NCBI RefSeq assembly: GCF_003334405.1
Contig: NZ_QOWM01000013.1
DNA from: Escherichia coli
GTDB taxonomy: Bacteria > Pseudomonadota > Gammaproteobacteria > Enterobacterales > Enterobacteriaceae
Length of the DNA: 64,000 nucleotides
Reading direction: 5' to 3' (one strand)
Shown here piece after piece: positions 1 to 12,255 of this stretch. The notes below the pieces were generated by a model. That model made no database searches. It was given only the letters and a program-made list of their open reading frames with translations, and was not told the origin of the DNA. Position 1 is the stretch's first letter; every line of letters begins with the position of its first letter. Position numbers and translations under genes: made by a program.

Positions 1-158
1 AGCAGGGGATTGACCGGATGGCCGGACGTCACTCCGCCGGGGCACACCGAACAGGCCACGCCGGTGGGGGCACCAATGCGCACCCCGGCTGAACCCTGAA
101 CAATGCTACCGCCATACTGCGTCATGTCGCCCTGACGCGCTGCCGGTTTTCCGCTCAT
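1..158 (-). CDS. rhsA: Rhs core protein, N-terminal 52 codons only (gene runs off the window start)
   Basis: Reverse strand from ATG at 158..156 translates MSGKPAARQGDMTQYGGSIVQGSAGVRIGAPTGVACSVCPGG..., the PAAR-like N-terminus typical of E. coli Rhs proteins; divergent from yibF as expected from K-12 gene order (recalled). Confidence 0.6.
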   Translation of the reverse strand, partial: MSGKPAARQGDMTQYGGSIVQGSAGVRIGAPTGVACSVCPGGVTSGHPVNPL

Positions 159-385
159 TTCTCATCCTTGTTTTATCGGGTTATTTGTCTGCTGACAGGC
201 GAAACCCTACAGATTTATAAGAAAGCCTGAAGTGAGATATCCATCAGAGTGAAATAATTAGGAAAATATTTATATCACCATGATAAATATGTGATTTATT
301 TGGAAGTAACAAACCATCAACATTTTCTGCCCTTTTTCCCATCACCAGGCCATACTGATATTTTTCCTCGCACAAAGGACTCGGC

Positions 386-994
386 ATGAAACTCGTCGGT
401 AGCTACACCAGCCCGTTTGTACGCAAACTTTCTATTCTGTTGTTAGAAAAGGGCATAACTTTCGAATTTATTAATGAACTGCCCTATAACGCGGACAACG
501 GCGTGGCGCAATTTAACCCGTTAGGAAAAGTGCCGGTGCTGGTGACCGAAGAGGGCGAATGCTGGTTTGATTCGCCGATCATCGCTGAATATATTGAATT
601 AATGAATGTCGCTCCGGCGATGTTGCCGCGCGATCCGCTGGAGTCGTTGCGGGTGCGCAAAATTGAGGCACTGGCGGATGGCATTATGGATGCCGGGCTG
701 GTATCGGTGCGTGAACAGGCGCGTCCAGCGGCGCAGCAGTCTGAAGATGAATTGTTACGCCAGCGGGAGAAAATCAACCGCAGTCTGGATGTGCTGGAAG
801 GATATCTGGTCGATGGCACACTCAAAACCGATACGGTCAATCTGGCGACTATCGCCATTGCCTGTGCCGTCGGATATCTCAATTTCCGCCGCGTTGCGCC
901 AGGTTGGTGTGTCGACCGCCCACACTTAGTCAAACTGGTCGAAAACCTGTTTAGCCGCGAAAGTTTTGCTCGCACCGAACCGCCAAAGGCTTGA
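386..994 (+). CDS. yibF: Glutathione S-transferase-like protein YibF
   Basis: 202-aa [31 protein letters not shown]... thioredoxin-like GST N-domain; recognised as YibF. Confidence 0.9.
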
Positions 995-1091
995 TGCGCG
1001 ATATGTCCTCCTGACCCATCTCACGTTACAATCCGTGGTTATGTTAAACGCCCTTCTCCGTGTGAGAGGGCCTTGATCAGCCAGGTTTCCT

Positions 1092-2483
1092 ATGACAACC
1101 GAAACGCGTTCCCTCTATAGTCAACTTCCGGCTATTGATCGCTTATTGCGCGATAGCTCCTTCCTTTCTTTGCGTGATACTTATGGTCACACCCGCGTGG
1201 TGGAATTGTTGCGTCAGATGCTCGACGAAGCGCGAGAAGTGATTCGTGGCAGCCAGACGCTGCCTGCGTGGTGTGAAAACTGGGCGCAAGAAGTCGATGC
1301 CCGGTTGACGAAAGAAGCGCAGAGCGCGCTGCGTCCGGTGATCAACCTGACGGGAACCGTGCTGCATACCAACCTTGGGCGAGCTTTACAGGCGGAAGCC
1401 GCGGTGGAAGCCGTTGCGCAGGCTATGCGTTCGCCAGTGACCCTCGAGTATGATCTGGACGACGCCGGACGCGGACATCGCGATCGGGCGCTGGCGCAGC
1501 TGCTGTGCCGTATTACGGGGGCGGAAGATGCCTGTATCGTCAATAACAATGCGGCGGCGGTGTTATTGATGTTGGCGGCCACTGCCAGCGGAAAAGAGGT
1601 GGTGGTATCTCGCGGCGAACTGGTGGAGATTGGCGGCGCGTTTCGTATTCCCGATGTTATGCGTCAGGCAGGCTGCACCCTACACGAAGTAGGGACCACC
1701 AACCGCACGCACGCGAATGATTATCGTCAGGCGGTGAATGAAAATACCGCACTGTTGATGAAAGTACATACCAGTAACTACAGCATTCAGGGGTTCACCA
1801 AAGCGATAGATGAAGCGGAACTGGTGGCGCTCGGCAAAGAGCTGGATGTTCCCGTAGTGACTGATTTAGGCAGTGGCTCGCTGGTCGATCTTAGCCAGTA
1901 CGGTTTGCCGAAAGAGCCAATGCCGCAGGAGTTGATTGCGGCGGGCGTCAGTCTGGTGAGTTTCTCCGGCGACAAGTTGTTAGGCGGGCCGCAGGCAGGA
2001 ATTATTGTTGGTAAAAAAGAGATGATCGCCCGCCTGCAAAGCCACCCGCTGAAGCGTGCATTACGCGCGGATAAAATGACCCTCGCGGCGCTGGAAGCCA
2101 CGTTGCGTCTTTATTTACACCCTGAAGCTCTGAGTGAAAAATTACCGACCCTGCGCCTGCTTACCCGCAGCGCAGAGGTCATTCAAATCCAGGCACAACG
2201 TTTACAGGCCCCCCTTGCCGCACATTACGGCGCGGAGTTTGCGGTACAGGTTATGCCATGTCTTTCGCAGATTGGCAGTGGTTCGCTGCCGGTTGATCGC
2301 CTGCCGAGCGCGGCATTAACGTTTACACCCCATGATGGACGCGGTAGCCACCTTGAGTCATTAGCCGCCCGCTGGCGTGAATTGCCAGTGCCGGTGATTG
2401 GTCGTATTTATGACGGACGATTGTGGCTGGATTTACGCTGCCTTGAAGATGAGCAACGGTTTTTGGAGATGTTGTTGAAATGA
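1092..2483 (+). CDS. selA: L-seryl-tRNA(Sec) selenium transferase
   Basis: 463-aa ORF recognised as SelA; 4-bp ATGA overlap with selB start (2480..2483). Confidence 0.95.
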
Positions 2484-4324
2484 TTATTGCGACTGCCGGA
2501 CACGTTGACCACGGCAAAACAACCTTATTGCAGGCGATTACTGGCGTAAATGCTGACCGTCTGCCGGAAGAAAAAAAGCGCGGCATGACCATCGATCTCG
2601 GCTATGCCTACTGGCCGCAGCCGGATGGTCGCGTGCCTGGTTTTATCGACGTTCCCGGTCATGAAAAGTTTCTTTCCAACATGCTGGCGGGCGTTGGTGG
2701 TATCGATCACGCGCTGTTGGTGGTGGCGTGCGATGACGGCGTGATGGCACAGACCCGTGAGCATCTGGCGATTTTGCAGCTGACCGGTAACCCGATGCTG
2801 ACAGTGGCGCTGACCAAAGCCGATCGCGTGGACGAAGCGCGTGTTGATGAGGTTGAACGCCAGGTAAAGGAGGTTCTGCGGGAATACGGTTTTGCTGAGG
2901 CAAAACTGTTTATCACCGCAGCAACCGAAGGTCGGGGAATGGATGCCCTGCGCGAGCATCTGCTTCAGTTGCCGGAACGCGAGCACGCCAGCCAACATAG
3001 TTTCCGCCTCGCGATTGACCGCGCATTTACCGTAAAAGGTGCCGGGCTGGTCGTCACCGGTACGGCGTTAAGCGGGGAAGTGAAGGTAGGCGATTCACTC
3101 TGGCTGACTGGTGTAAATAAACCGATGCGTGTACGTGCGCTGCATGCGCAAAACCAGCCAACAGAAACCGCCAATGCCGGGCAGCGTATCGCGCTTAACA
3201 TCGCGGGTGATGCGGAAAAAGAGCAGATTAACCGTGGCGACTGGCTGCTTGCCGATGTGCCGCCAGAGCCGTTCACACGGGTGATTGTCGAGCTTCAAAC
3301 CCATACACCGCTGACCCAGTGGCAGCCGCTGCATATTCACCACGCCGCCAGCCACGTCACGGGACGCGTTTCACTGCTGGAAGATAACCTTGCTGAACTG
3401 GTCTTCGACACCCCGTTATGGCTGGCAGATAACGACCGCCTGGTATTGCGCGATATCTCTGCCCGCAACACGCTGGCCGGAGCGCGCGTCGTGATGCTTA
3501 ACCCGCCGCGTCGCGGTAAACGTAAGCCGGAATATCTGCAATGGCTGGCGTCTCTTGCACGGGCGCAGAGCGATGCCGATGCGTTATCTGTTCATCTGGA
3601 ACGCGGCGCGGTTAACCTTGCGGATTTCGCCTGGGCGCGCCAGCTCAACGGCGAAGGGATGCGCGAATTGCTGCAACAGCCTGGTTATATTCAGGCTGGT
3701 TATAGCTTGTTGAATGCGCCGGTTGCCGCCCGCTGGCAGCGGAAAATTCTCGACACATTAGCGACTTATCATGAGCAACATCGCGATGAACCTGGCCCTG
3801 GGCGCGAACGTCTGCGACGTATGGCGTTGCCAATGGAAGATGAAGCGCTGGTACTGTTGCTGATTGAAAAGATGCGCGAAAGCGGCGACATCCACAGCCA
3901 TCACGGCTGGCTGCATCTGCCAGATCACAAAGCGGGCTTCAGCGAAGAGCAGCAGGCCATCTGGCAAAAAGCAGAGCCACTGTTTGGTGACGAACCGTGG
4001 TGGGTGCGTGACCTGGCAAAAGAGACGGGAACCGACGAGCAGGCAATGCGCCTGACTCTACGCCAGGCGGCGCAGCAAGGAATAATTACCGCGATCGTTA
4101 AAGATCGTTATTACCGTAACGATCGGATTGTCGAGTTTGCCAATATGATCCGCGATCTCGATCAGGAGTGTGGTTCAACCTGCGCGGCGGATTTCCGCGA
4201 TCGCTTAGGCGTAGGCCGAAAGCTGGCAATTCAGATTCTGGAATATTTTGACCGCATTGGCTTTACGCGTCGTCGTGGAAATGATCATTTATTGCGCGAC
4301 GCATTATTATTTCCGGAAAAATAA
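2480..4324 (+). CDS. selB: Selenocysteine-specific translation elongation factor
   Basis: 614-aa ORF with N-terminal GTPase P-loop [11 protein letters not shown]; recognised as SelB. Confidence 0.95.
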
Positions 4325-4374
4325 GGAAATGATTAATTAAGTTTTAAAATAAATTAATACAAAATTCTTATGAA

Positions 4375-4419
4375 TTTAAAAAAAGCACATTGTTTAATGA
4401 ATACAATGTGCTTTTTATT
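4375..4419. terminator. Rho-independent terminator after selB (A-tract / hairpin / T-tract, potentially bidirectional)
   Basis: Stem agcacattg (4384..4392) pairs with caatgtgct (4405..4413), followed by TTTTT (4414..4418) and preceded by an A-run. Confidence 0.5.
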
Positions 4420-4513
4420 AGATTAATTTTGATAATCAATAATACTGATCATATTTTCGAATGAAAATCCTCAGTAAGCTGCCCGCCCTTTTTTACACTT
4501 TCAGGAGTGTGTT

Positions 4514-5665
4514 ATGGCAGCTTCAACGTTCTTTATTCCTTCTGTGAATGTCATCGGCGCTGATTCATTGACTGATGCAATGAATATGATGGCAGATTAT
4601 GGATTTACCCGTACCTTAATTGTCACTGACAATATGTTAACGAAATTAGGTATGGCGGGCGATGTGCAAAAAGCACTGGAAGAACGCAATATTTTTAGCG
4701 TTATTTATGATGGCACCCAACCTAACCCCACCACGGAAAACGTCGCCGCAGGTTTGAAATTACTTAAAGAGAATAATTGCGATAGCGTGATCTCCTTAGG
4801 CGGTGGTTCTCCACACGACTGCGCAAAAGGTATTGCGCTGGTGGCAGCCAATGGCGGCGATATTCGCGATTACGAAGGCGTTGACCGCTCTGCAAAACCG
4901 CAGCTGCCGATGATCGCCATCAATACCACGGCGGGTACGGCCTCTGAAATGACCCGTTTCTGCATCATCACTGACGAAGCGCGTCATATCAAAATGGCGA
5001 TTGTTGATAAACATGTCACTCCGCTGCTTTCTGTCAATGACTCCTCTCTGATGATTGGTATGCCGAAGTCACTGACCGCCGCAACGGGTATGGATGCCTT
5101 AACGCACGCTATCGAAGCATATGTTTCTATTGCCGCCACGCCGATCACTGACGCTTGTGCACTGAAAGCCGTGACCATGATTGCCGAAAACCTGCCGTTA
5201 GCCGTTGAAGATGGCAGTAATGCGAAAGCGCGTGAAGCAATGGCTTATGCCCAGTTCCTCGCCGGTATGGCGTTCAATAATGCTTCTCTGGGTTATGTTC
5301 ATGCGATGGCGCACCAGCTGGGCGGTTTCTACAACCTGCCACACGGTGTATGTAACGCCGTTTTGCTGCCGCACGTTCAGGTATTCAACAGCAAAGTCGC
5401 CGCTGCACGTCTGCGTGACTGTGCCGCTGCAATGGGCGTGAACGTGACAGGTAAAAACGACGCGGAAGGTGCTGAAGCCTGCATTAACGCCATCCGTGAA
5501 CTGGCGAAGAAAGTGGATATCCCGGCAGGCCTACGCGACCTGAACGTGAAAGAAGAAGATTTCGCGGTATTGGCGACTAATGCCCTGAAAGATGCCTGTG
5601 GCTTTACTAACCCGATCCAGGCAACTCACGAAGAAATTGTGGCGATTTATCGCGCAGCGATGTAA
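4514..5665 (+). CDS. yiaY: Iron-containing (group III) alcohol dehydrogenase YiaY
   Basis: 383-aa ORF recognised as YiaY, Fe-ADH family. Confidence 0.9.
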
Positions 5666-5829
5666 TCATCATTTCCACAACGGCTGGCAAATTGTCAGCC
5701 GCTTTTTCAACTATCTCTGTAACCCTTGCCCGTAAATTCGTGATAGCTGTCGTAAAGCTGTTACCGACTGGCGAAGATTTCGCCAGTCACGTCTACCCTT
5801 GTTATACCTCACACCGCAAGGAGACGATC

Positions 5830-7368
5830 ATGACCAATAATCCCCCTTCAGCACAGATTAAGCCCGGCGAGTATGGTTTCCCCCTCAAGTTAAAAGCCCG
5901 CTATGACAACTTTATTGGCGGCGAATGGGTAGCCCCTGCCGACGGCGAGTATTACCAGAATCTGACGCCGGTGACCGGGCAGCTGCTGTGCGAAGTGGCG
6001 TCTTCGGGCAAACGAGACATCGATCTGGCGCTGGATGCTGCGCACAAAGTGAAAGATAAATGGGCGCACACCTCGGTGCAGGATCGTGCGGCGATTCTGT
6101 TTAAGATTGCCGATCGAATGGAACAAAACCTCGAGCTGTTAGCGACAGCTGAAACCTGGGATAACGGCAAACCCATTCGCGAAACCAGTGCTGCGGATGT
6201 ACCGCTGGCGATTGACCATTTCCGCTATTTCGCCTCGTGTATTCGGGCGCAGGAAGGTGGGATCAGTGAAGTTGATAGCGAAACCGTGGCCTATCATTTC
6301 CATGAACCGTTAGGCGTGGTGGGGCAGATTATCCCGTGGAACTTCCCGCTGCTGATGGCGAGCTGGAAAATGGCTCCCGCGCTGGCGGCGGGCAACTGTG
6401 TGGTGCTGAAACCCGCACGTCTTACCCCGCTTTCTGTACTGCTGCTAATGGAAATTGTCGGTGATTTACTGCCGCCGGGCGTGGTGAACGTGGTCAATGG
6501 CGCAGGTGGGGTAATTGGCGAATATCTGGCGACCTCGAAACGCATCGCCAAAGTGGCGTTTACCGGCTCAACGGAAGTGGGCCAACAAATTATGCAATAC
6601 GCAACGCAAAACATTATTCCGGTGACGCTGGAGTTGGGCGGTAAGTCGCCAAATATCTTCTTTGCTGATGTGATGGATGAAGAAGATGCCTTTTTCGATA
6701 AAGCGCTGGAAGGCTTTGCACTGTTTGCCTTTAACCAGGGCGAAGTTTGCACCTGTCCGAGTCGTGCTTTAGTGCAGGAATCTATCTACGAACGCTTTAT
6801 GGAACGCGCCATCCGCCGTGTCGAAAGCATTCGTAGCGGTAACCCGCTCGACAGCGTGACGCAAATGGGCGCGCAGGTTTCTCACGGGCAACTGGAAACC
6901 ATCCTCAACTACATTGATATCGGTAAAAAAGAGGGCGCTGACGTGCTCACAGGCGGGCGGCGCAAGCTGCTGGAAGGTGAACTGAAAGACGGCTACTACC
7001 TCGAACCGACGATTCTGTTTGGTCAGAACAATATGCGGGTGTTCCAGGAGGAGATTTTTGGCCCGGTGCTGGCGGTGACCACCTTCAAAACGATGGAAGA
7101 AGCGCTGGAGCTGGCGAACGATACGCAATATGGCCTGGGCGCGGGCGTCTGGAGCCGCAACGGTAATCTGGCCTATAAGATGGGGCGCGGCATACAGGCT
7201 GGGCGCGTGTGGACCAACTGTTATCACGCTTACCCGGCACATGCGGCGTTTGGTGGCTACAAACAATCAGGTATCGGTCGCGAAACCCACAAGATGATGC
7301 TGGAGCATTACCAGCAAACCAAGTGCCTGCTGGTGAGCTACTCGGATAAACCGTTGGGGCTGTTCTGA
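5830..7368 (+). CDS. aldB: Aldehyde dehydrogenase B
   Basis: ORF track gives 558 aa from 5692; I place the start at ATG 5830 ([17 protein letters not shown]...), giving the 512 aa I recall for AldB. Confidence 0.93.
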
Positions 7369-7399
7369 TATAAGAAGCTGGTCGCATTGGGTATTCATT

Positions 7400-7483
7400 G
7401 CCTGATGCGACGCTTACGCGTCTTATCATGCCTACGGGAACCTGACCGTAGGCCGGATAAGGCGTACACGCCGCATCCGGCAT
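7400..7483. repeat. REP/BIME element (two inverted palindromic units) downstream of aldB
   Basis: gcctgatgcgacgcttacgcgtcttatcatgcctac ... gtaggccggataaggcgtacacgccgcatccggcat; near-identical to the copy at 56178..56212. Confidence 0.7.
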
Positions 7484-7912
7484 AAACAAAGCGCACGTTG
7501 TTACAATTTACGTTTTAAACCTACGTGCGCAATAACCCAGACTACGCCAACAGAAGTACGTTTCTGGGGCGTGTTTTGTCAGGAGTTTAATCTCGCGTTT
7601 CGATGGTGAGCGGGCGAACCAGGCCGTAAATCACCATTGGTGATCCGAGGCCAATCAGCAATAAACGGTAGATAATTGAAGGTTTAATACGCTTAATCTG
7701 TACTGTGGATGTTTTACTGGAGTTATTCATTAGTTTGGCCAATAGTTCCACTATTTCAATATGATAAACCTCGTCCTGTTGAAAAACCAGACAGCACATT
7801 TAAGAAAGTATATAAAAAACAATATGTCGTTATATAAATAAGGAAATTGCACTGCATCATGGCATTTCATAATATGCGTTAATTGTTCTTTTTTATATTC
7901 TTTGAGGGAAAT

Positions 7913-8236
7913 ATGTTCCTGGACTATTTTGCACTGGGAGTGCTTATTTTTGTATTTCTGGTGATCTTCTATGGGATCATTATTTTACATGATATTCCCT
8001 ACCTGATTGCCAAAAAACGTAATCATCCTCATGCCGACGCCATTCATGTTGCTGGTTGGGTGAGTCTTTTTACGTTACATGTTATCTGGCCGTTTTTGTG
8101 GATTTGGGCCACGCTTTACCGCCCGGAGCGGGGATGGGGAATGCAAAGCCATGATTCATCCGTTATGCAACTGCAACAGCGCATTGCCGGGCTGGAGAAA
8201 CAGCTCGCCGACATCAAATCCTCTTCTGCCGAGTAA
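7913..8236 (+). CDS. yiaW: Small inner-membrane protein YiaW (recalled as DUF3302 family)
   Basis: Start placed at ATG 7913 ([21 protein letters not shown]...), giving 107 aa with gaggga RBS upstream; two predicted TM segments. Confidence 0.8.
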
Positions 8237-8241
8237 TACTT

Positions 8242-9378
8242 ATGGATTTACTGATTATTTTGACCTATGTGGCTTTTGCATGGGCAATGTTTAAGATCTT
8301 CAAAATTCCCGTAAATAAATGGACCATTCCCACAGCGGCCCTGGGTGGAATATTTATTGTCAGCGGTCTAATTCTGTTAATGAACTATAACCATCCGTAT
8401 ACCTTTAAAGCGCAAAAAGCGGTTATTTCTATTCCTGTTGTCCCACAGGTGACTGGTGTGGTGATTGAAGTGACGGATAAGAAAAATACGCTGATTAAAA
8501 AAGGTGAGGTGCTATTTCGACTGGACCCGACGCGTTATCAGGCGCGGGTGGATCGGCTGATGGCGGATATCGTTACCGCAGAACATAAACAGCGGGCGTT
8601 GGGCGCAGAGTTAGATGAGATGGCGGCGAATACTCAGCAGGCAAAGGCCACGCGGGATAAATTCGCTAAAGAGTATCAGCGTTACGCACGTGGCAGCCAG
8701 GCGAAAGTAAACCCGTTTTCAGAACGCGATATCGATGTGGCGCGGCAAAATTATCTGGCGCAGGAAGCCTCCGTGAAGTCATCGGCGGCGGAACAAAAAC
8801 AGATCCAGAGCCAGCTGGATAGCCTGGTGTTGGGTGAACATTCTCAAATCGCCAGCCTGAAAGCACAGCTCGCGGAAGCAAAATATAACCTTGAGCAGAC
8901 GATAGTGCGTGCGCCGAGCGATGGTTATGTGACCCAGGTACTGATTCGTCCGGGTACCTATGCCGCGTCGCTGCCGCTACGTCCGGTGATGGTGTTTATA
9001 CCCGATCAGAAACGACAAATCGTGGCGCAGTTCCGTCAGAACTCCTTGCTGCGACTGGCTCCTGGCGACGATGCGGAAGTGGTGTTTAATGCTCTGCCAG
9101 GTAAGGTATTCAGCGGTAAGCTGGCAGCCATTAGTCCAGCCGTTCCCGGCGGAGCTTATCAGTCGACCGGCACCTTACAGACGTTAAACACAGCGCCGGG
9201 TTCAGATGGCGTTATCGCGACCATTGAACTGGATGAGCACACTGATTTGAGCGCTTTACCAGACGGTATTTACGCCCAGGTGGCGGTTTACTCTGATCAT
9301 TTCAGCCATGTCTCGGTGATGCGCAAAGTGCTATTACGCATGACCAGCTGGGTGCATTACCTTTATCTCGATCATTAA
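8242..9378 (+). CDS. yiaV: HlyD-family membrane-fusion (periplasmic adaptor) protein YiaV
   Basis: 378-aa ORF with N-terminal TM helix and long coiled-coil region; 6 bp downstream of yiaW. Confidence 0.85.
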
Positions 9379-10349
9379 TCTTCGCTTTCCGCCGCTTGTT
9401 CAGGCCGCAGTTGCTGCGACTGAGCAAGCTGGTGGCGAATTTCACGCAGCATTTCATCCAGCACATACTGGACCCGCCAGGGCTGGTATTCCCGTTTACG
9501 GAAGATAGCCACCAGATCCAGCCACCATTCATAGGGTTGCTGAAAGCAGGGCACCAGCGTGCCGTCTTGCAGGTCGCTCTGCACACTTTTGTCTGGCGCA
9601 AACACAATCCCCAGGTGATTTCGTGCCAGCTCCAGCGCAGATTGCGTGTTGTCGCAAACGTAATTTCCCTTCACGCGATAATCCCGCACCTCTTTACTCC
9701 CGGCGACGTTGAAGCGCCAGATATTCGCGTCGTCGATCATCATCGAGTCGATCAAAATACAGGAGTGATGTTCGAGTTCGTCAGGACGGCTAATGGGATG
9801 TTTCTCAAGATAGCGCTGGCTGGCATAAGCGGTTACGGCATATTGGGTAATAAAACTGGCAACCAGCGATTCATCTTTTGGTGGAGCGTAGCTGATTAAA
9901 ACATCACAATCATCAGGAAATTCGACGCCTTCATAAAAGGCATTACGCTCAAGATTGCAGGTTTTTAGCGATAAGGTGATATCACCGATATCTTTAATTT
10001 TATCGATTACATGTTTGGATAAATAGGTAATTATGCCGGTTGGGGCGTAGATGGTGACCCGACCACGTTTCTCATGCTTATAATCTGCAATAAAATTATT
10101 AAGTTGCTCGTTTCTGTCCAGCATGTCGTTGATGTACGGTAACAGCGCGGTGCCAAAAGGTGTGAGCATCAGCTGCCGGGTGGTTCGGTCAAAGACTTTT
10201 AAACCCACTTTTGATTCAAAATCAGCAAGATATTTGCTGACGTTGGCCTGTGCGATGCCAAGTACAGTCGCGGCATGGCTGATATTTTCACTGGCAGCGA
10301 TTACCGAGATAATTTTTAACTCCCGGTACTTAAGTTGTAATTTTGTCAT
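9375..10349 (-). CDS. yiaU: LysR-family transcriptional regulator YiaU
   Basis: 324-aa ORF with N-terminal HTH ([19 protein letters not shown]); 4-bp convergent overlap with yiaV. Confidence 0.85.
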
Positions 10350-10472
10350 CGCAACAGCCCAATTATATATAATTTTATATATTACTATATAAATATGAAT
10401 CTTGCACCGGAGAAATTGTAAGCATTATTATGCCGACTCTTTTTTATCTTATTTTAAAATGGAATACCGGAC

Positions 10473-11213
10473 ATGTTAATTAATCGCAATATTGTGGCGT
10501 TATTTGCGTTGCCTTTTATGGCAAGCGCAACTGCTTCTGAATTATCCATTGGTGCTGGTGCGGCTTATAATGAATCGCCTTATCGCGGTTATAATGAAAA
10601 TACGAAGGCAATTCCGCTGATTAGTTATGAAGGTGATACTTTTTATGTTCGTCAGACCACGTTAGGTTTTATTCTGTCGCAAAGTGAAAAAAATGAACTT
10701 AGCCTGACCGCATCCTGGATGCCGCTGGAATTTGACCCTACCGATAATGACGATTATGCCATGCAACAGCTTGATAAGCGTGATAGTACGGCTATGGCGG
10801 GGGTTGCCTGGTATCACCACGAGCGTTGGGGAACCGTGAAAGCCTCTGCAGCTGCGGACGTTCTGGATAACAGCAACGGCTGGGTGGGGGAGCTATCGGT
10901 ATTCCACAAAATGCAGATAGGTCGTCTGTCGCTGACACCTGCGCTGGGCGTTCTCTATTATGACGAGAATTTCAGTGACTATTACTATGGCATTTCAGAG
11001 AGTGAGTCCCGTCGTAGCGGTCTGGCAAGTTATTCCGCGCAGGATGCCTGGGTGCCCTATGTCAGCCTGACGGCAAAATACCCGATAGGAGAGCACGTCG
11101 TATTGATGGCGAGCGCAGGATACAGCGAGCTGCCGGAAGAGATTACCGACAGCCCGATGATTGATCGTAATGAGAGTTTTACCTTTGTCACCGGGGTGAG
11201 CTGGCGTTTTTAA
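10473..11213 (+). CDS. yiaT: MipA/OmpV-family outer-membrane protein YiaT
   Basis: 246-aa ORF with signal peptide and C-terminal ...GVSWRF beta-barrel terminus. Confidence 0.85.
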   Translation: MLINRNIVALFALPFMASATASELSIGAGAAYNESPYRGYNENTKAIPLISYEGDTFYVRQTTLGFILSQSEKNELSLTASWMPLEFDPTDNDDYAMQQLDKRDSTAMAGVAWYHHERWGTVKASAAADVLDNSNGWVGELSVFHKMQIGRLSLTPALGVLYYDENFSDYYYGISESESRRSGLASYSAQDAWVPYVSLTAKYPIGEHVVLMASAGYSELPEEITDSPMIDRNESFTFVTGVSWRF

Positions 11214-11468
11214 TTCACCGGTGGATGTCGGTGCGGCTGGTGCTCCGTCGTAATGCCACAAAGGTTGTTGCTCTGGATTGCTCTGTTCATACCGGGAACC
11301 TGGCGTCTGAATCAGGATCTTATGGCTGAACAATCCCTTGCCTTCAAATGTCGTAAATGGCGCATCGGCGGGCAGCAACAGGTTATGCAGTGACTCGACG
11401 TTGTCGGCCTGCTCCATGCAATACGGTTTAATGACGTTGGCTATTTCCGGCAGATTTTTCAGAAACAT
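11214..11468 (-). other. Possible gene remnant or small ORF downstream of sgbE (about 85 codons before the frame runs antisense into yiaT)
   Basis: ATG at 11468..11466 opens a frame (MFLKNLPEIANVIKPYCMEQADNVESLHNLLLPADAPFTTFEGKGLFSHKILIQTPGSRYEQ...) with protein-like composition; no recognisable full-length homologue from memory. Confidence 0.2.
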
Positions 11469-11559
11469 ACTGGTTTAACGCCAGCAGCGTGGAAGCGGCG
11501 TTACAGCAAGGAACATATCAATTCGTAGTGCCGGGGCGATGAAGCCCCGGCGTGAGGGA

Positions 11560-12255
11560 TTACTGCCCGTAATAGGCATTGGCCCCATGCTTACGCAGGT
11601 AGTGCTTATCCAGCAGTTCGTTTTGCATCGCAGGGAGCTGCGGCGCAAGCTGGCGCGAGAATAGACCCATATAGGCGCATTCTTCGAGTACTACGGCGTT
11701 ATGCACGGCATCGGCGGCGTTTTTACCCCATGCGAACGGGCCGTGAGAATGCACCAGCACCGCCGGGATTTGTGCCGGACTCCTGCCACGTTCTTCGAAG
11801 GTTTCAATGATCACTTCGCCGGTCTGATATTCATATTCGCCGTTAATCTCCTCTGCGGTCATCTGTCGCGTGCAGGGGATGGCACCGTAAAAATAATCGG
11901 CGTGGGTGGTGCCCCAGGCGGGGAGATCCAGCCCGGCCTGTGACCAGATGGTGGCGTGGCGCGAGTGGGTATGCACAATACCGCCAATTTCGGCATAGCG
12001 ACGGTAGAGCGCCAGATGCGTTGGTGTATCGGAAGAGGGTTTTTTGCTGCCTTCCACCACCTTACCGCTGGCTATCTCAACCACCACCATATCGTCGGCG
12101 GTCATCACGTCGTACTCGACGCCGGAAGGTTTGATTACCATCCATTGCCGCGTTTCGTCTACCGCGCTGACATTGCCCCAGGTGAACGTCACCAGATGGT
12201 GAGCGGGAAGCGCCAGATTCGCCGCCAGCACGTCGGCTTTCAGTTGCTCTAACAT
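11560..12255 (-). CDS. sgbE: L-ribulose-5-phosphate 4-epimerase
   Basis: 231-aa ORF recognised as SgbE (class II aldolase/epimerase). Confidence 0.93.

Follow-up and report, generated by a model that had tools for sequence, protein, structure and literature searches.

yiaW-yiaV of Escherichia coli, a pump-less DUF3302-adaptor gene pair that may constitute a minimal export system

Introduction

An energised inner-membrane pump is what defines a tripartite efflux system. What, then, is the role of a periplasmic adaptor encoded at a locus where no pump gene is found? This question is raised by the yiaW-yiaV pair of Escherichia coli, which lies in the 64,000-nucleotide stretch of DNA analysed here (hereafter, the window). 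In an initial annotation, a gene for a small two-transmembrane protein (yiaW) followed by one for an HlyD-type adaptor (yiaV) had been described next to genes for a LysR-type regulator (yiaU) and a MipA-family protein (yiaT), and it had been pointed out that no inner-membrane transporter gene comes after yiaV, the next genes being the convergent yiaU and then yiaT. This description was borne out by the open reading frames (ORFs), the Pfam matches and the RefSeq annotation. No transporter gene was found between or beside the four genes in the ORF table or in the annotation, and the only transporters within 20 kb on either side are a phosphotransferase system (PTS; mtlA), a TRAP importer (yiaMNO) and an ATP-binding cassette (ABC) importer (xylFGH).

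We prefer, with a probability of about one half, to see in YiaW the cognate inner-membrane partner of YiaV; the two, together with an outer-membrane factor (in E. coli, TolC), would make up a self-contained envelope-spanning system. This reading is based on how tightly the two genes are coupled, on the lack of a pump gene throughout the family, on the operon links to outer-membrane factor genes, which occur in several lineages and with two gene orders, and on the fact that in both proteins conservation is highest in the membrane segments. The pair may constitute a minimal export system, in which the DUF3302 family, to which YiaW belongs, would replace the pump with a two-helix protein of 100 residues. 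If true, this would amount either to a new minimal export mechanism or to a class of adaptors borrowing pumps in trans, and it offers a testable role for four E. coli y-genes (yiaW, yiaV and their paralogues yibI and yibH) and for DUF3302, which comprises at least 881 representative clusters at E ≤ 1e-3.

The function of the module had been taken as not established, and this holds in the literature searched: no characterization of yiaWV or yibIH was found there, DUF3302 is scarcely mentioned, and YiaV is catalogued as an 'uncharacterized' member of the MFP (membrane-fusion protein) family (TCDB 8.A.1.1.4; PMC10971958). These are known y-genes; as far as the searched literature shows, the pump-less architecture of the whole family and its linkage to outer-membrane factor genes are undescribed.

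DUF3302 and YiaV-type adaptor genes occur as a pair without a pump gene

The neighbourhood of DUF3302 genes was examined at about 160 loci from Enterobacterales, Aeromonas, Bacteroidota, Campylobacterota and metagenomes. The enterobacterial survey (one genome per species) provided 72 loci, in which genes were called and neighbours clustered; the distant loci came from encoded contigs and a metagenome scan seeded with the DUF3302 family consensus. At 159 of all these loci, the gene of a YiaV-type adaptor was located directly 3' of the DUF3302 gene and on the same strand, and among the 72 enterobacterial loci this was so wherever the contig extends beyond the DUF3302 gene. The gap between the two genes was at most 15 nt in 128 of the 130 full pairs (median 2 nt), with 29 overlaps, and yiaV itself starts 5 nt past the stop codon of yiaW. 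Such short gaps and overlaps indicate translational coupling. The non-redundant DUF3302-adaptor pairs numbered 53, too few for coupling analysis. These results suggest that yiaW-yiaV is a translationally coupled two-gene module belonging to an old and widespread family made of a DUF3302 protein and a YiaV-type adaptor.

DUF3302 genes without an adaptor gene, where the contig has room for one, were seen only in a soil clade (L097 1855-3001, L118 726-1853, L094 511-2791). Its DUF3302 protein is longer, at about 185 residues, and is followed by one of 150 residues and by a large one resembling alpha/beta-hydrolases; of the three contigs, L094 has the adaptor gene, and L097 and L118 lack it. Two further entries looked like contamination or mislabelling, namely L017, which is titled Chryseobacterium sp. 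18061 and displays the enterobacterial mtlA-yibIH-yibF-selAB synteny, and L047, a 433-bp contig titled Myxococcus with a DUF3302 gene of enterobacterial type.

The genes around the pair were compared at 93 informative loci, comprising 65 enteric or Aeromonas pairs flanked on each side by at least 1.5 kb of sequence, and 28 non-enteric loci. No recurrent gene of the FUSC, major facilitator superfamily (MFS), ABC or resistance-nodulation-division (RND) type was found next to the pair in these 93 loci, and a recurrent efflux or polytopic transporter gene was adjacent to none of the 65 enteric or Aeromonas pairs. The earlier suggestion that a pump gene had been lost from the E. coli locus is contradicted by these counts. 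From the gene content of the family, the 'missing' pump was probably never part of it.

The contexts of the pair were diverse. The enterobacterial pairs occupied at least eight of them, beside unrelated neighbours (MtlA, YibF, MocR, GGDEF, DkgA, the dihydroxyacetone kinase Dak, PqiB, PTS and RadD). The widespread enterobacterial arrangement is mtlA-yibIH-yibF-selAB, and in Serratia, Rahnella, Yersinia, Buttiauxella, Budvicia, Pantoea and Aeromonas the pair was found in other, mutually different contexts. Neighbour clusters that seemed to be recurrent turned out to consist of unrelated housekeeping genes (PurT, an AAA ATPase, RadD, PPK2 and glutamate dehydrogenase) and were discarded.

The sole recurrent co-oriented neighbour with at least six transmembrane segments was a cation/proton antiporter, confined to one marine clade. 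Genes for antiporters of about 400 residues were located within four genes of the operon in L082 (9716-10933), L115 (9451-10674), L132 (3-1193), L137 (9974-11185), L139 (1851-3134), L150 (5882-7078), L157 (1436-2632) and L074 (9451-10707). They are of the CPA1 type in the marine clade and of the CPA2 type in L074, and they are placed before the operon, after it or with a PPK2 gene in between.

The second pair of K-12, yibI-yibH, is a paralogous DUF3302/HlyD pair about 17 kb from yiaWV. Sequence identity is 75% between YibI and YiaW and 77% between YibH and YiaV; the proteins agree in length and in their conserved termini, and no pump gene adjoins yibIH either. The two pairs differ in their sites: yibIH sits at mtlA-yibF, the widespread site in Enterobacteriaceae, whereas the aldB-yiaU slot is occupied by yiaWV only in Escherichia, Citrobacter and Pseudocitrobacter. 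The non-yiaV-type adaptors were all 73-79% identical to YiaV, and these identities do not separate duplication of yibIH from transfer.

Outer-membrane factor genes are linked to the pair in distant relatives

A gene for a TolC-like outer-membrane factor of the OEP family (PF02321) was adjacent to the pair and co-oriented with it in 8 of the 28 informative non-enteric loci (6 when duplicate contigs are counted once). The same linkage was seen in Nitratifractor (L167) and in a cluster of short contigs (L075-L078). Two gene orders were observed: OEP-DUF3302-MFP in Reichenbachiella L080, in L084 and in L075, and DUF3302-MFP-OEP in L082, L085, L137, L150, L157 and Nitratifractor L167. All the OEP-linked adaptors have a short hairpin and 316-321 residues; the long-hairpin class, which includes the E. 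coli proteins, has 345-387 residues. In about half of the informative loci of the short-hairpin subclass, the OEP gene is the third gene of the operon.

According to the initial annotation, finding the same pump-less gene set in orthologous loci, together with the lack of a pump-interaction domain in YiaV, would have pointed to a role other than efflux. The same pump-less set is indeed present elsewhere; the conclusion of a non-efflux role does not follow, because TolC-like OEP genes are the operon partners of the pair in distant members of the family.

Contig L082 also has, at 1-4851, a complete operon of the FUSC-OEP-DUF1656-AaeA-like kind, 3 kb upstream of its DUF3302-adaptor-OEP operon, and both systems are thus present in one genome. 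This operon provides an internal contrast, as a relative that contains a pump. Its FUSC gene is the only one that was seen, and none adjoins a DUF3302 pair.

Domain organization and conservation of YiaV and YiaW

In YiaV, a lipoyl domain split by an alpha-helical hairpin is followed by a beta-barrel, as in adaptors of the HlyD/MFP type (Pfam, AlphaFold2 and Foldseek). The protein was matched by CusB_dom_1 (E 5.4e-15) and HlyD_D23 (E 1.8e-9) in Pfam and by 17 NCBIfam adaptor models, of which the best were MdtN and the EmrA/EmrK subfamily, at 112 bits each and both below their cut-off. The AlphaFold2 model (pLDDT 85.9) contains N-terminal transmembrane helices at residues 2-19 and 28-50, the lipoyl domain, the beta-barrel and a C-terminal helix (355-374). 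The arms of the hairpin are of about 56 residues each (97-152 and 161-218), and the model is devoid of a membrane-proximal domain.

YiaV-type adaptors share a nearly invariant N-terminal stretch of 28 letters followed by a second hydrophobic helix, a NYNHPY motif, and a C-terminal helix of the form HHVAIMRKxLLRMxSWMNYLFxxH, whose last residue is a near-invariant histidine (His378 in YiaV). At the tip of the hairpin, the pattern R...(S/T/A)xx(D/E)(I/L/V)(D/E) is kept, and the spacing that is canonical for TolC-docking adaptors, R-x3-L-x6-(S/A), occurs in some lineages. The tip is compatible with the R-L-S docking motif, yet it deviates from this motif in the enteric lineage.

YiaW was matched over its full length by DUF3302 (PF11742, E 2.7e-43, model positions 1-76 of 77). 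In its AlphaFold2 model (pLDDT 86.6), helices 2-35 and 41-68 form a hairpin with an RNHPH turn at the tip. The tip has the conserved sequence KKRNHPHxDAIH and the second helix is Trp-rich; a separate and variable C-terminal helix (82-106) comes after the hairpin. The core motif of DUF3302, which spans 42 letters, is strongly conserved. A search of the PDB with the YiaW sequence gave no match.

The degree of conservation was expressed as the mean frequency of the commonest residue. In YiaV, this value was 0.71-0.84 for the first transmembrane helix, the loop, the second transmembrane helix and NYNHPY, and 0.71 for the C-terminal helix; it was lower in the periplasm, with 0.56 for the beta-barrel and 0.34 for the hairpin. 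In YiaW, the loop and the second transmembrane helix reached 0.88-0.90. The membrane-embedded parts of YiaW and YiaV are the most conserved parts of these proteins. Since they exceed the periplasmic domains in this respect, they would be more than anchors. Charge statistics place the N-terminus of YiaV outside and its Lys-rich loop inside, and the charge bias also puts the N-terminus of YiaW outside. Both genes are under strong purifying selection: compared with the Citrobacter amalonaticus orthologues, dN/dS was about 0.04 for yiaW and about 0.02 for yiaV.

Comparison with known tripartite systems

The closest relative of YiaV among solved structures is EmrA, of the EmrAB-TolC system. It was the best Foldseek match of the YiaV model (8zal/8zar, E 1e-20, TM-score 0.64-0.70) and the best match among the sequences of solved proteins (phmmer, E 7.5e-12). 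The two proteins have in common an N-terminal anchor, a lipoyl domain, a long alpha-hairpin, a beta-barrel and the absence of a membrane-proximal domain. YiaV differs from EmrA in several respects: its score was 52.5 bits with the EmrA model (cut-off 563) and 112 bits with that of the EmrA/EmrK subfamily (cut-off 390.8), it possesses two N-terminal transmembrane helices and, in addition, a conserved helix at the C-terminus, a DUF3302 gene always precedes its own, and no EmrB-like MFS gene is present at yiaWV. With MacA, AcrA and MexA, the adaptors of MacAB-TolC and of RND systems, YiaV shares the lipoyl, hairpin and beta-barrel core, the hairpin being of a type that would dock TolC. The structural match to these proteins was weaker (TM-score 0.40-0.50), and the membrane-proximal domain by which they contact the pump is lacking in YiaV.

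The locus had initially been likened to aaeXAB-aaeR. Its anatomy supports this comparison in part: as in AaeXAB and MdtNOP (FUSC/PET), the gene of a small two-transmembrane protein precedes that of an adaptor, a LysR gene is nearby, and YiaV is closest to adaptors of FUSC or MFS pumps (MdtN, its top NCBIfam match, EmrA and AaeA). The assignment of YiaW to the AaeX-type small proteins (DUF1656) was considered and rejected: hhalign gave a probability of 0.4% for DUF3302 and the DUF1656 protein of L082, so that no relation of YiaW to AaeX was detectable. YiaV scored 63 bits against the 400-bit cut-off for AaeA, and no FUSC gene lies 3' of yiaV, the next gene being the convergent yiaU. With the AaeR model, YiaU scored 33.7 bits against a cut-off of 425. 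Its gene converges on yiaV and is partnered with yiaT, unlike a dedicated divergent LysR activator.

Proposed assembly and its alternatives

Gene content, pairing, the lack of pump genes, the OEP linkage in relatives, the fold, the pattern of conservation and purifying selection are what the analysis shows; a physical YiaW-YiaV complex, the use of TolC and a transport function are what we infer. YiaV would oligomerise like EmrA to give a periplasmic tube, held by its two N-terminal transmembrane helices and by the conserved, amphipathic C-terminal helix. The helical hairpins of YiaW would pack against these membrane elements, and the alpha-hairpin of YiaV would dock the outer-membrane factor. 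For E. coli this means TolC, whose gene lies elsewhere, and for the short-hairpin relatives the dedicated factor that their operon encodes. As OEP linkage is confined to the short-hairpin class, the use of TolC in E. coli is an extrapolation; the unlinked OEP of the long-hairpin class would fit the use of the housekeeping TolC.

With regard to the mechanism, conserved His, Asp, Asn and Trp residues in the membrane or at its edges, and the recurrence of a CPA1-type antiporter in one clade, suggest a proton- or cation-linked step as the most likely one, which is a lead and not a result. The antiporter genes near the operon in that clade would fit an ion-related role. Residues that may belong to such a path are H26, D27, H38, D42, H45 and H56 of YiaW and N48-P52, H356 and H378 of YiaV. 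We tentatively extend this to a stronger proposal, possible rather than probable: that DUF3302, the YiaV-type adaptor and the outer-membrane factor form a separate class of tripartite exporter devoid of a conventional pump, in which the translocation unit would consist solely of the DUF3302 hairpins and of the transmembrane helices and C-terminal helix of the adaptor, the conserved residues lining a proton or cation path.

Several points weigh against a self-contained YiaW-YiaV system. To our knowledge, no adaptor transports without an energised inner-membrane transporter, and neither an energy-coupling domain nor a substrate-binding domain was recognisable by Pfam in YiaW or YiaV. A linked OEP gene was present in none of the 65 informative enteric or Aeromonas pairs and in no long-hairpin pair examined. 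The topology of YiaW is predicted from charge bias alone, and this bias is ambiguous for its loop. Foldseek with the YiaW model returned nothing significant, the best match (E 2.8) being to the GldL/PorL motor hairpins, which was not used as evidence. The reported phenotypes are weak or indirect: insertion of IS1 or aph into yiaW had no effect on phagosome maturation (PMC5495878), and deletion of yiaW is cited, at second hand, as raising the efficiency of Ca2+-mediated transformation (PMC12844161).

The main alternative is that YiaV is an orphan adaptor, with YiaW as an AaeX-like accessory, which bridges TolC to a FUSC/PET, MFS or ABC pump encoded elsewhere; we regard it as rather unlikely. 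The orphan FUSC paralogues of E. coli, such as YccS and YhfK, are candidate pumps in trans. Adaptors have no known intrinsic transport activity, the families closest to YiaV (MdtN, EmrA/EmrK, AaeA and MacA) all serve pumps, and so does every characterised adaptor. Furthermore, E. coli genes for outer-membrane factors are often unlinked from those of their tripartite partners, so that unlinked partners are not unusual, and the antiporter of about 400 residues near the operon in one clade makes some partner in cis conceivable. What argues against a borrowed pump is that no pump gene recurs beside the pair at the 93 informative loci, which span several phyla, although in tripartite systems linkage is normally tightest between the genes of adaptor and pump. 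The component that is found to be linked is instead the outer-membrane factor, usually the most dispensable member of such operons. The conservation of the transmembrane parts, which is even higher in YiaW, rather fits YiaW as the membrane partner.

A role outside transport, as an envelope-spanning structural, tethering or sensing device (for instance one that connects the inner membrane with the outer, or a transducer that depends on the proton-motive force and acts on an outer-membrane protein), appears improbable. It would account for the absence of energy-coupling and substrate-binding domains and for the effect of the yiaW deletion on transformation, which is an envelope-barrier phenotype; deletion of yibI, after which both fitness in urine and adhesion to bladder cells are reduced (PMC5404293), is also in its favour. 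Nevertheless, the module bears the hallmarks of an export duct in its fold, its hairpin and its operon link to TolC-like channels, and no significant similarity to any known tether or motor family was found. It is very improbable that yiaWV of K-12 is a silent, dispensable remnant of horizontal acquisition with no present function. The region upstream is AT-rich, the paralogous yibIH is present, insertion sequences (IS) have entered the segment in some strains, and it is missing or replaced in part of E. coli, at least 80% of it being covered in 3723 of 5426 complete genomes. A remnant is, however, hard to reconcile with intact reading frames, with the low dN/dS values of both genes and with the maintenance of the pair at the same site across Citrobacter and Pseudocitrobacter.

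The yiaU-yiaT pair and the variable slot after aldB

YiaU contains the HTH_1 (E 1.1e-12) and LysR_substrate (E 4.2e-15) domains of LysR-type regulators, and YiaT is a full-length MipA match (PF06629, E 4.9e-52, model positions 1-221 of 221). A synteny scan showed that the order aldB-yiaWV-yiaU-yiaT is restricted to Escherichia, Citrobacter and Pseudocitrobacter, the only genera in which yiaT is linked to DUF3302. In Enterobacter, Lelliottia and Leclercia, aldB is directly followed by yiaU-yiaT, and yiaWV is absent. Because of this arrangement, yiaU-yiaT is seen to be an independent divergent pair, beside which yiaWV is an insertion, and the analogy with aaeR therefore falls. It would have been natural to assume that yiaWV is under the control of yiaU, as aaeXAB is under that of AaeR, and this assumption is corrected here. 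In the main text of a study of a yiaU (LpsR/CsuR) knockout, yiaT was up by 2.8 log2-fold (derepressed) and the waa operon was down, and yiaWV does not appear (PMC9068703).

The place of yiaWV between aldB and yiaU-yiaT is a strain-variable slot, or hotspot, and some strains carry other cargo there. In the E. coli contig L166 (strain 1517k; 1938-7084), yiaWVUT is absent, and a gene for a type I restriction endonuclease and hicAB occupy the slot after aldB; a Fic-family gene lies between yiaY and aldB in the same contig. None of the four proteins of the present locus was matched in a PADLOC scan, which gives no link to a known defence system.

The yiaU and yiaV genes meet tail to tail with an overlap of 4 bp (9375-9378), and yiaU diverges from yiaT. 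The yiaV/yiaU pair is one of the convergent 'excludon' candidates proposed from RNA-seq (PMC12288877). On this basis, the two genes might interfere with each other's expression.

Organization of the locus

Positions 7500-11400 of the window are 100% identical to the chromosome of E. coli K-12 MG1655, where RefSeq names the genes yiaW, yiaV, yiaU and yiaT; aldB flanks the locus upstream and sgbE downstream. The coordinates are collected in Table 1.

Table 1. Genes and intergenic regions of the yiaW-yiaT locus (positions in the window)
Feature	Position	Strand	Description
AT-rich spacer 5' of yiaW	7700..7912	+	GC 0.305; likely promoter region; weak sigma-70-like match at 7736-7765
yiaW	7913..8236	+	107 aa, DUF3302 inner-membrane protein
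yiaV	8242..9378	+	378 aa, EmrA-like HlyD-type periplasmic adaptor
yiaU (CsuR/LpsR)	9375..10349	-	324 aa, LysR-type regulator
yiaU-yiaT divergent control region	10350..10472	no strand	GC 0.285; promoter-like minus-strand matches at 10479-10451 and 10399-10372
yiaT	10473..11213	+	246 aa, MipA/OmpV-family outer-membrane protein

The AT-rich surroundings that had been noticed initially were confirmed for the two intergenic regions, against a GC content of 0.509 for the window overall. Part of the low GC at 7500-8400 comes from the 5' ends of yiaW and yiaV, which encode hydrophobic transmembrane segments; yiaW itself has a GC content of 0.466. In the scan for promoters and terminators, the numbers of matches were not clearly above the expectation from shuffled sequences, and the promoter match upstream of yiaW was no better than those in shuffled sequence. 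The Rfam scan of 7000-11600 gave nothing in the yiaW leader and only sub-threshold matches to naRNA4, a family derived from repetitive extragenic palindromic (REP) elements, 3' of aldB. There are three of these, overlapping and on both strands (7358-7531), directly 3' of aldB, which probably form a REP/BIME (bacterial interspersed mosaic element) cluster.

In the AT-rich spacer between aldB and yiaW, RefSeq annotates a 'hypothetical protein' of 47 residues on the minus strand (7587-7730). Beyond yiaT, a deletion in K-12 is marked by two pseudogene stubs at about 11235-11528, one of a hypothetical protein and one of an AraC-family regulator, both partial; between yiaT and sgbE, other E. coli retain genes for a GH127 glycosidase, an MFS transporter and an AraC regulator.

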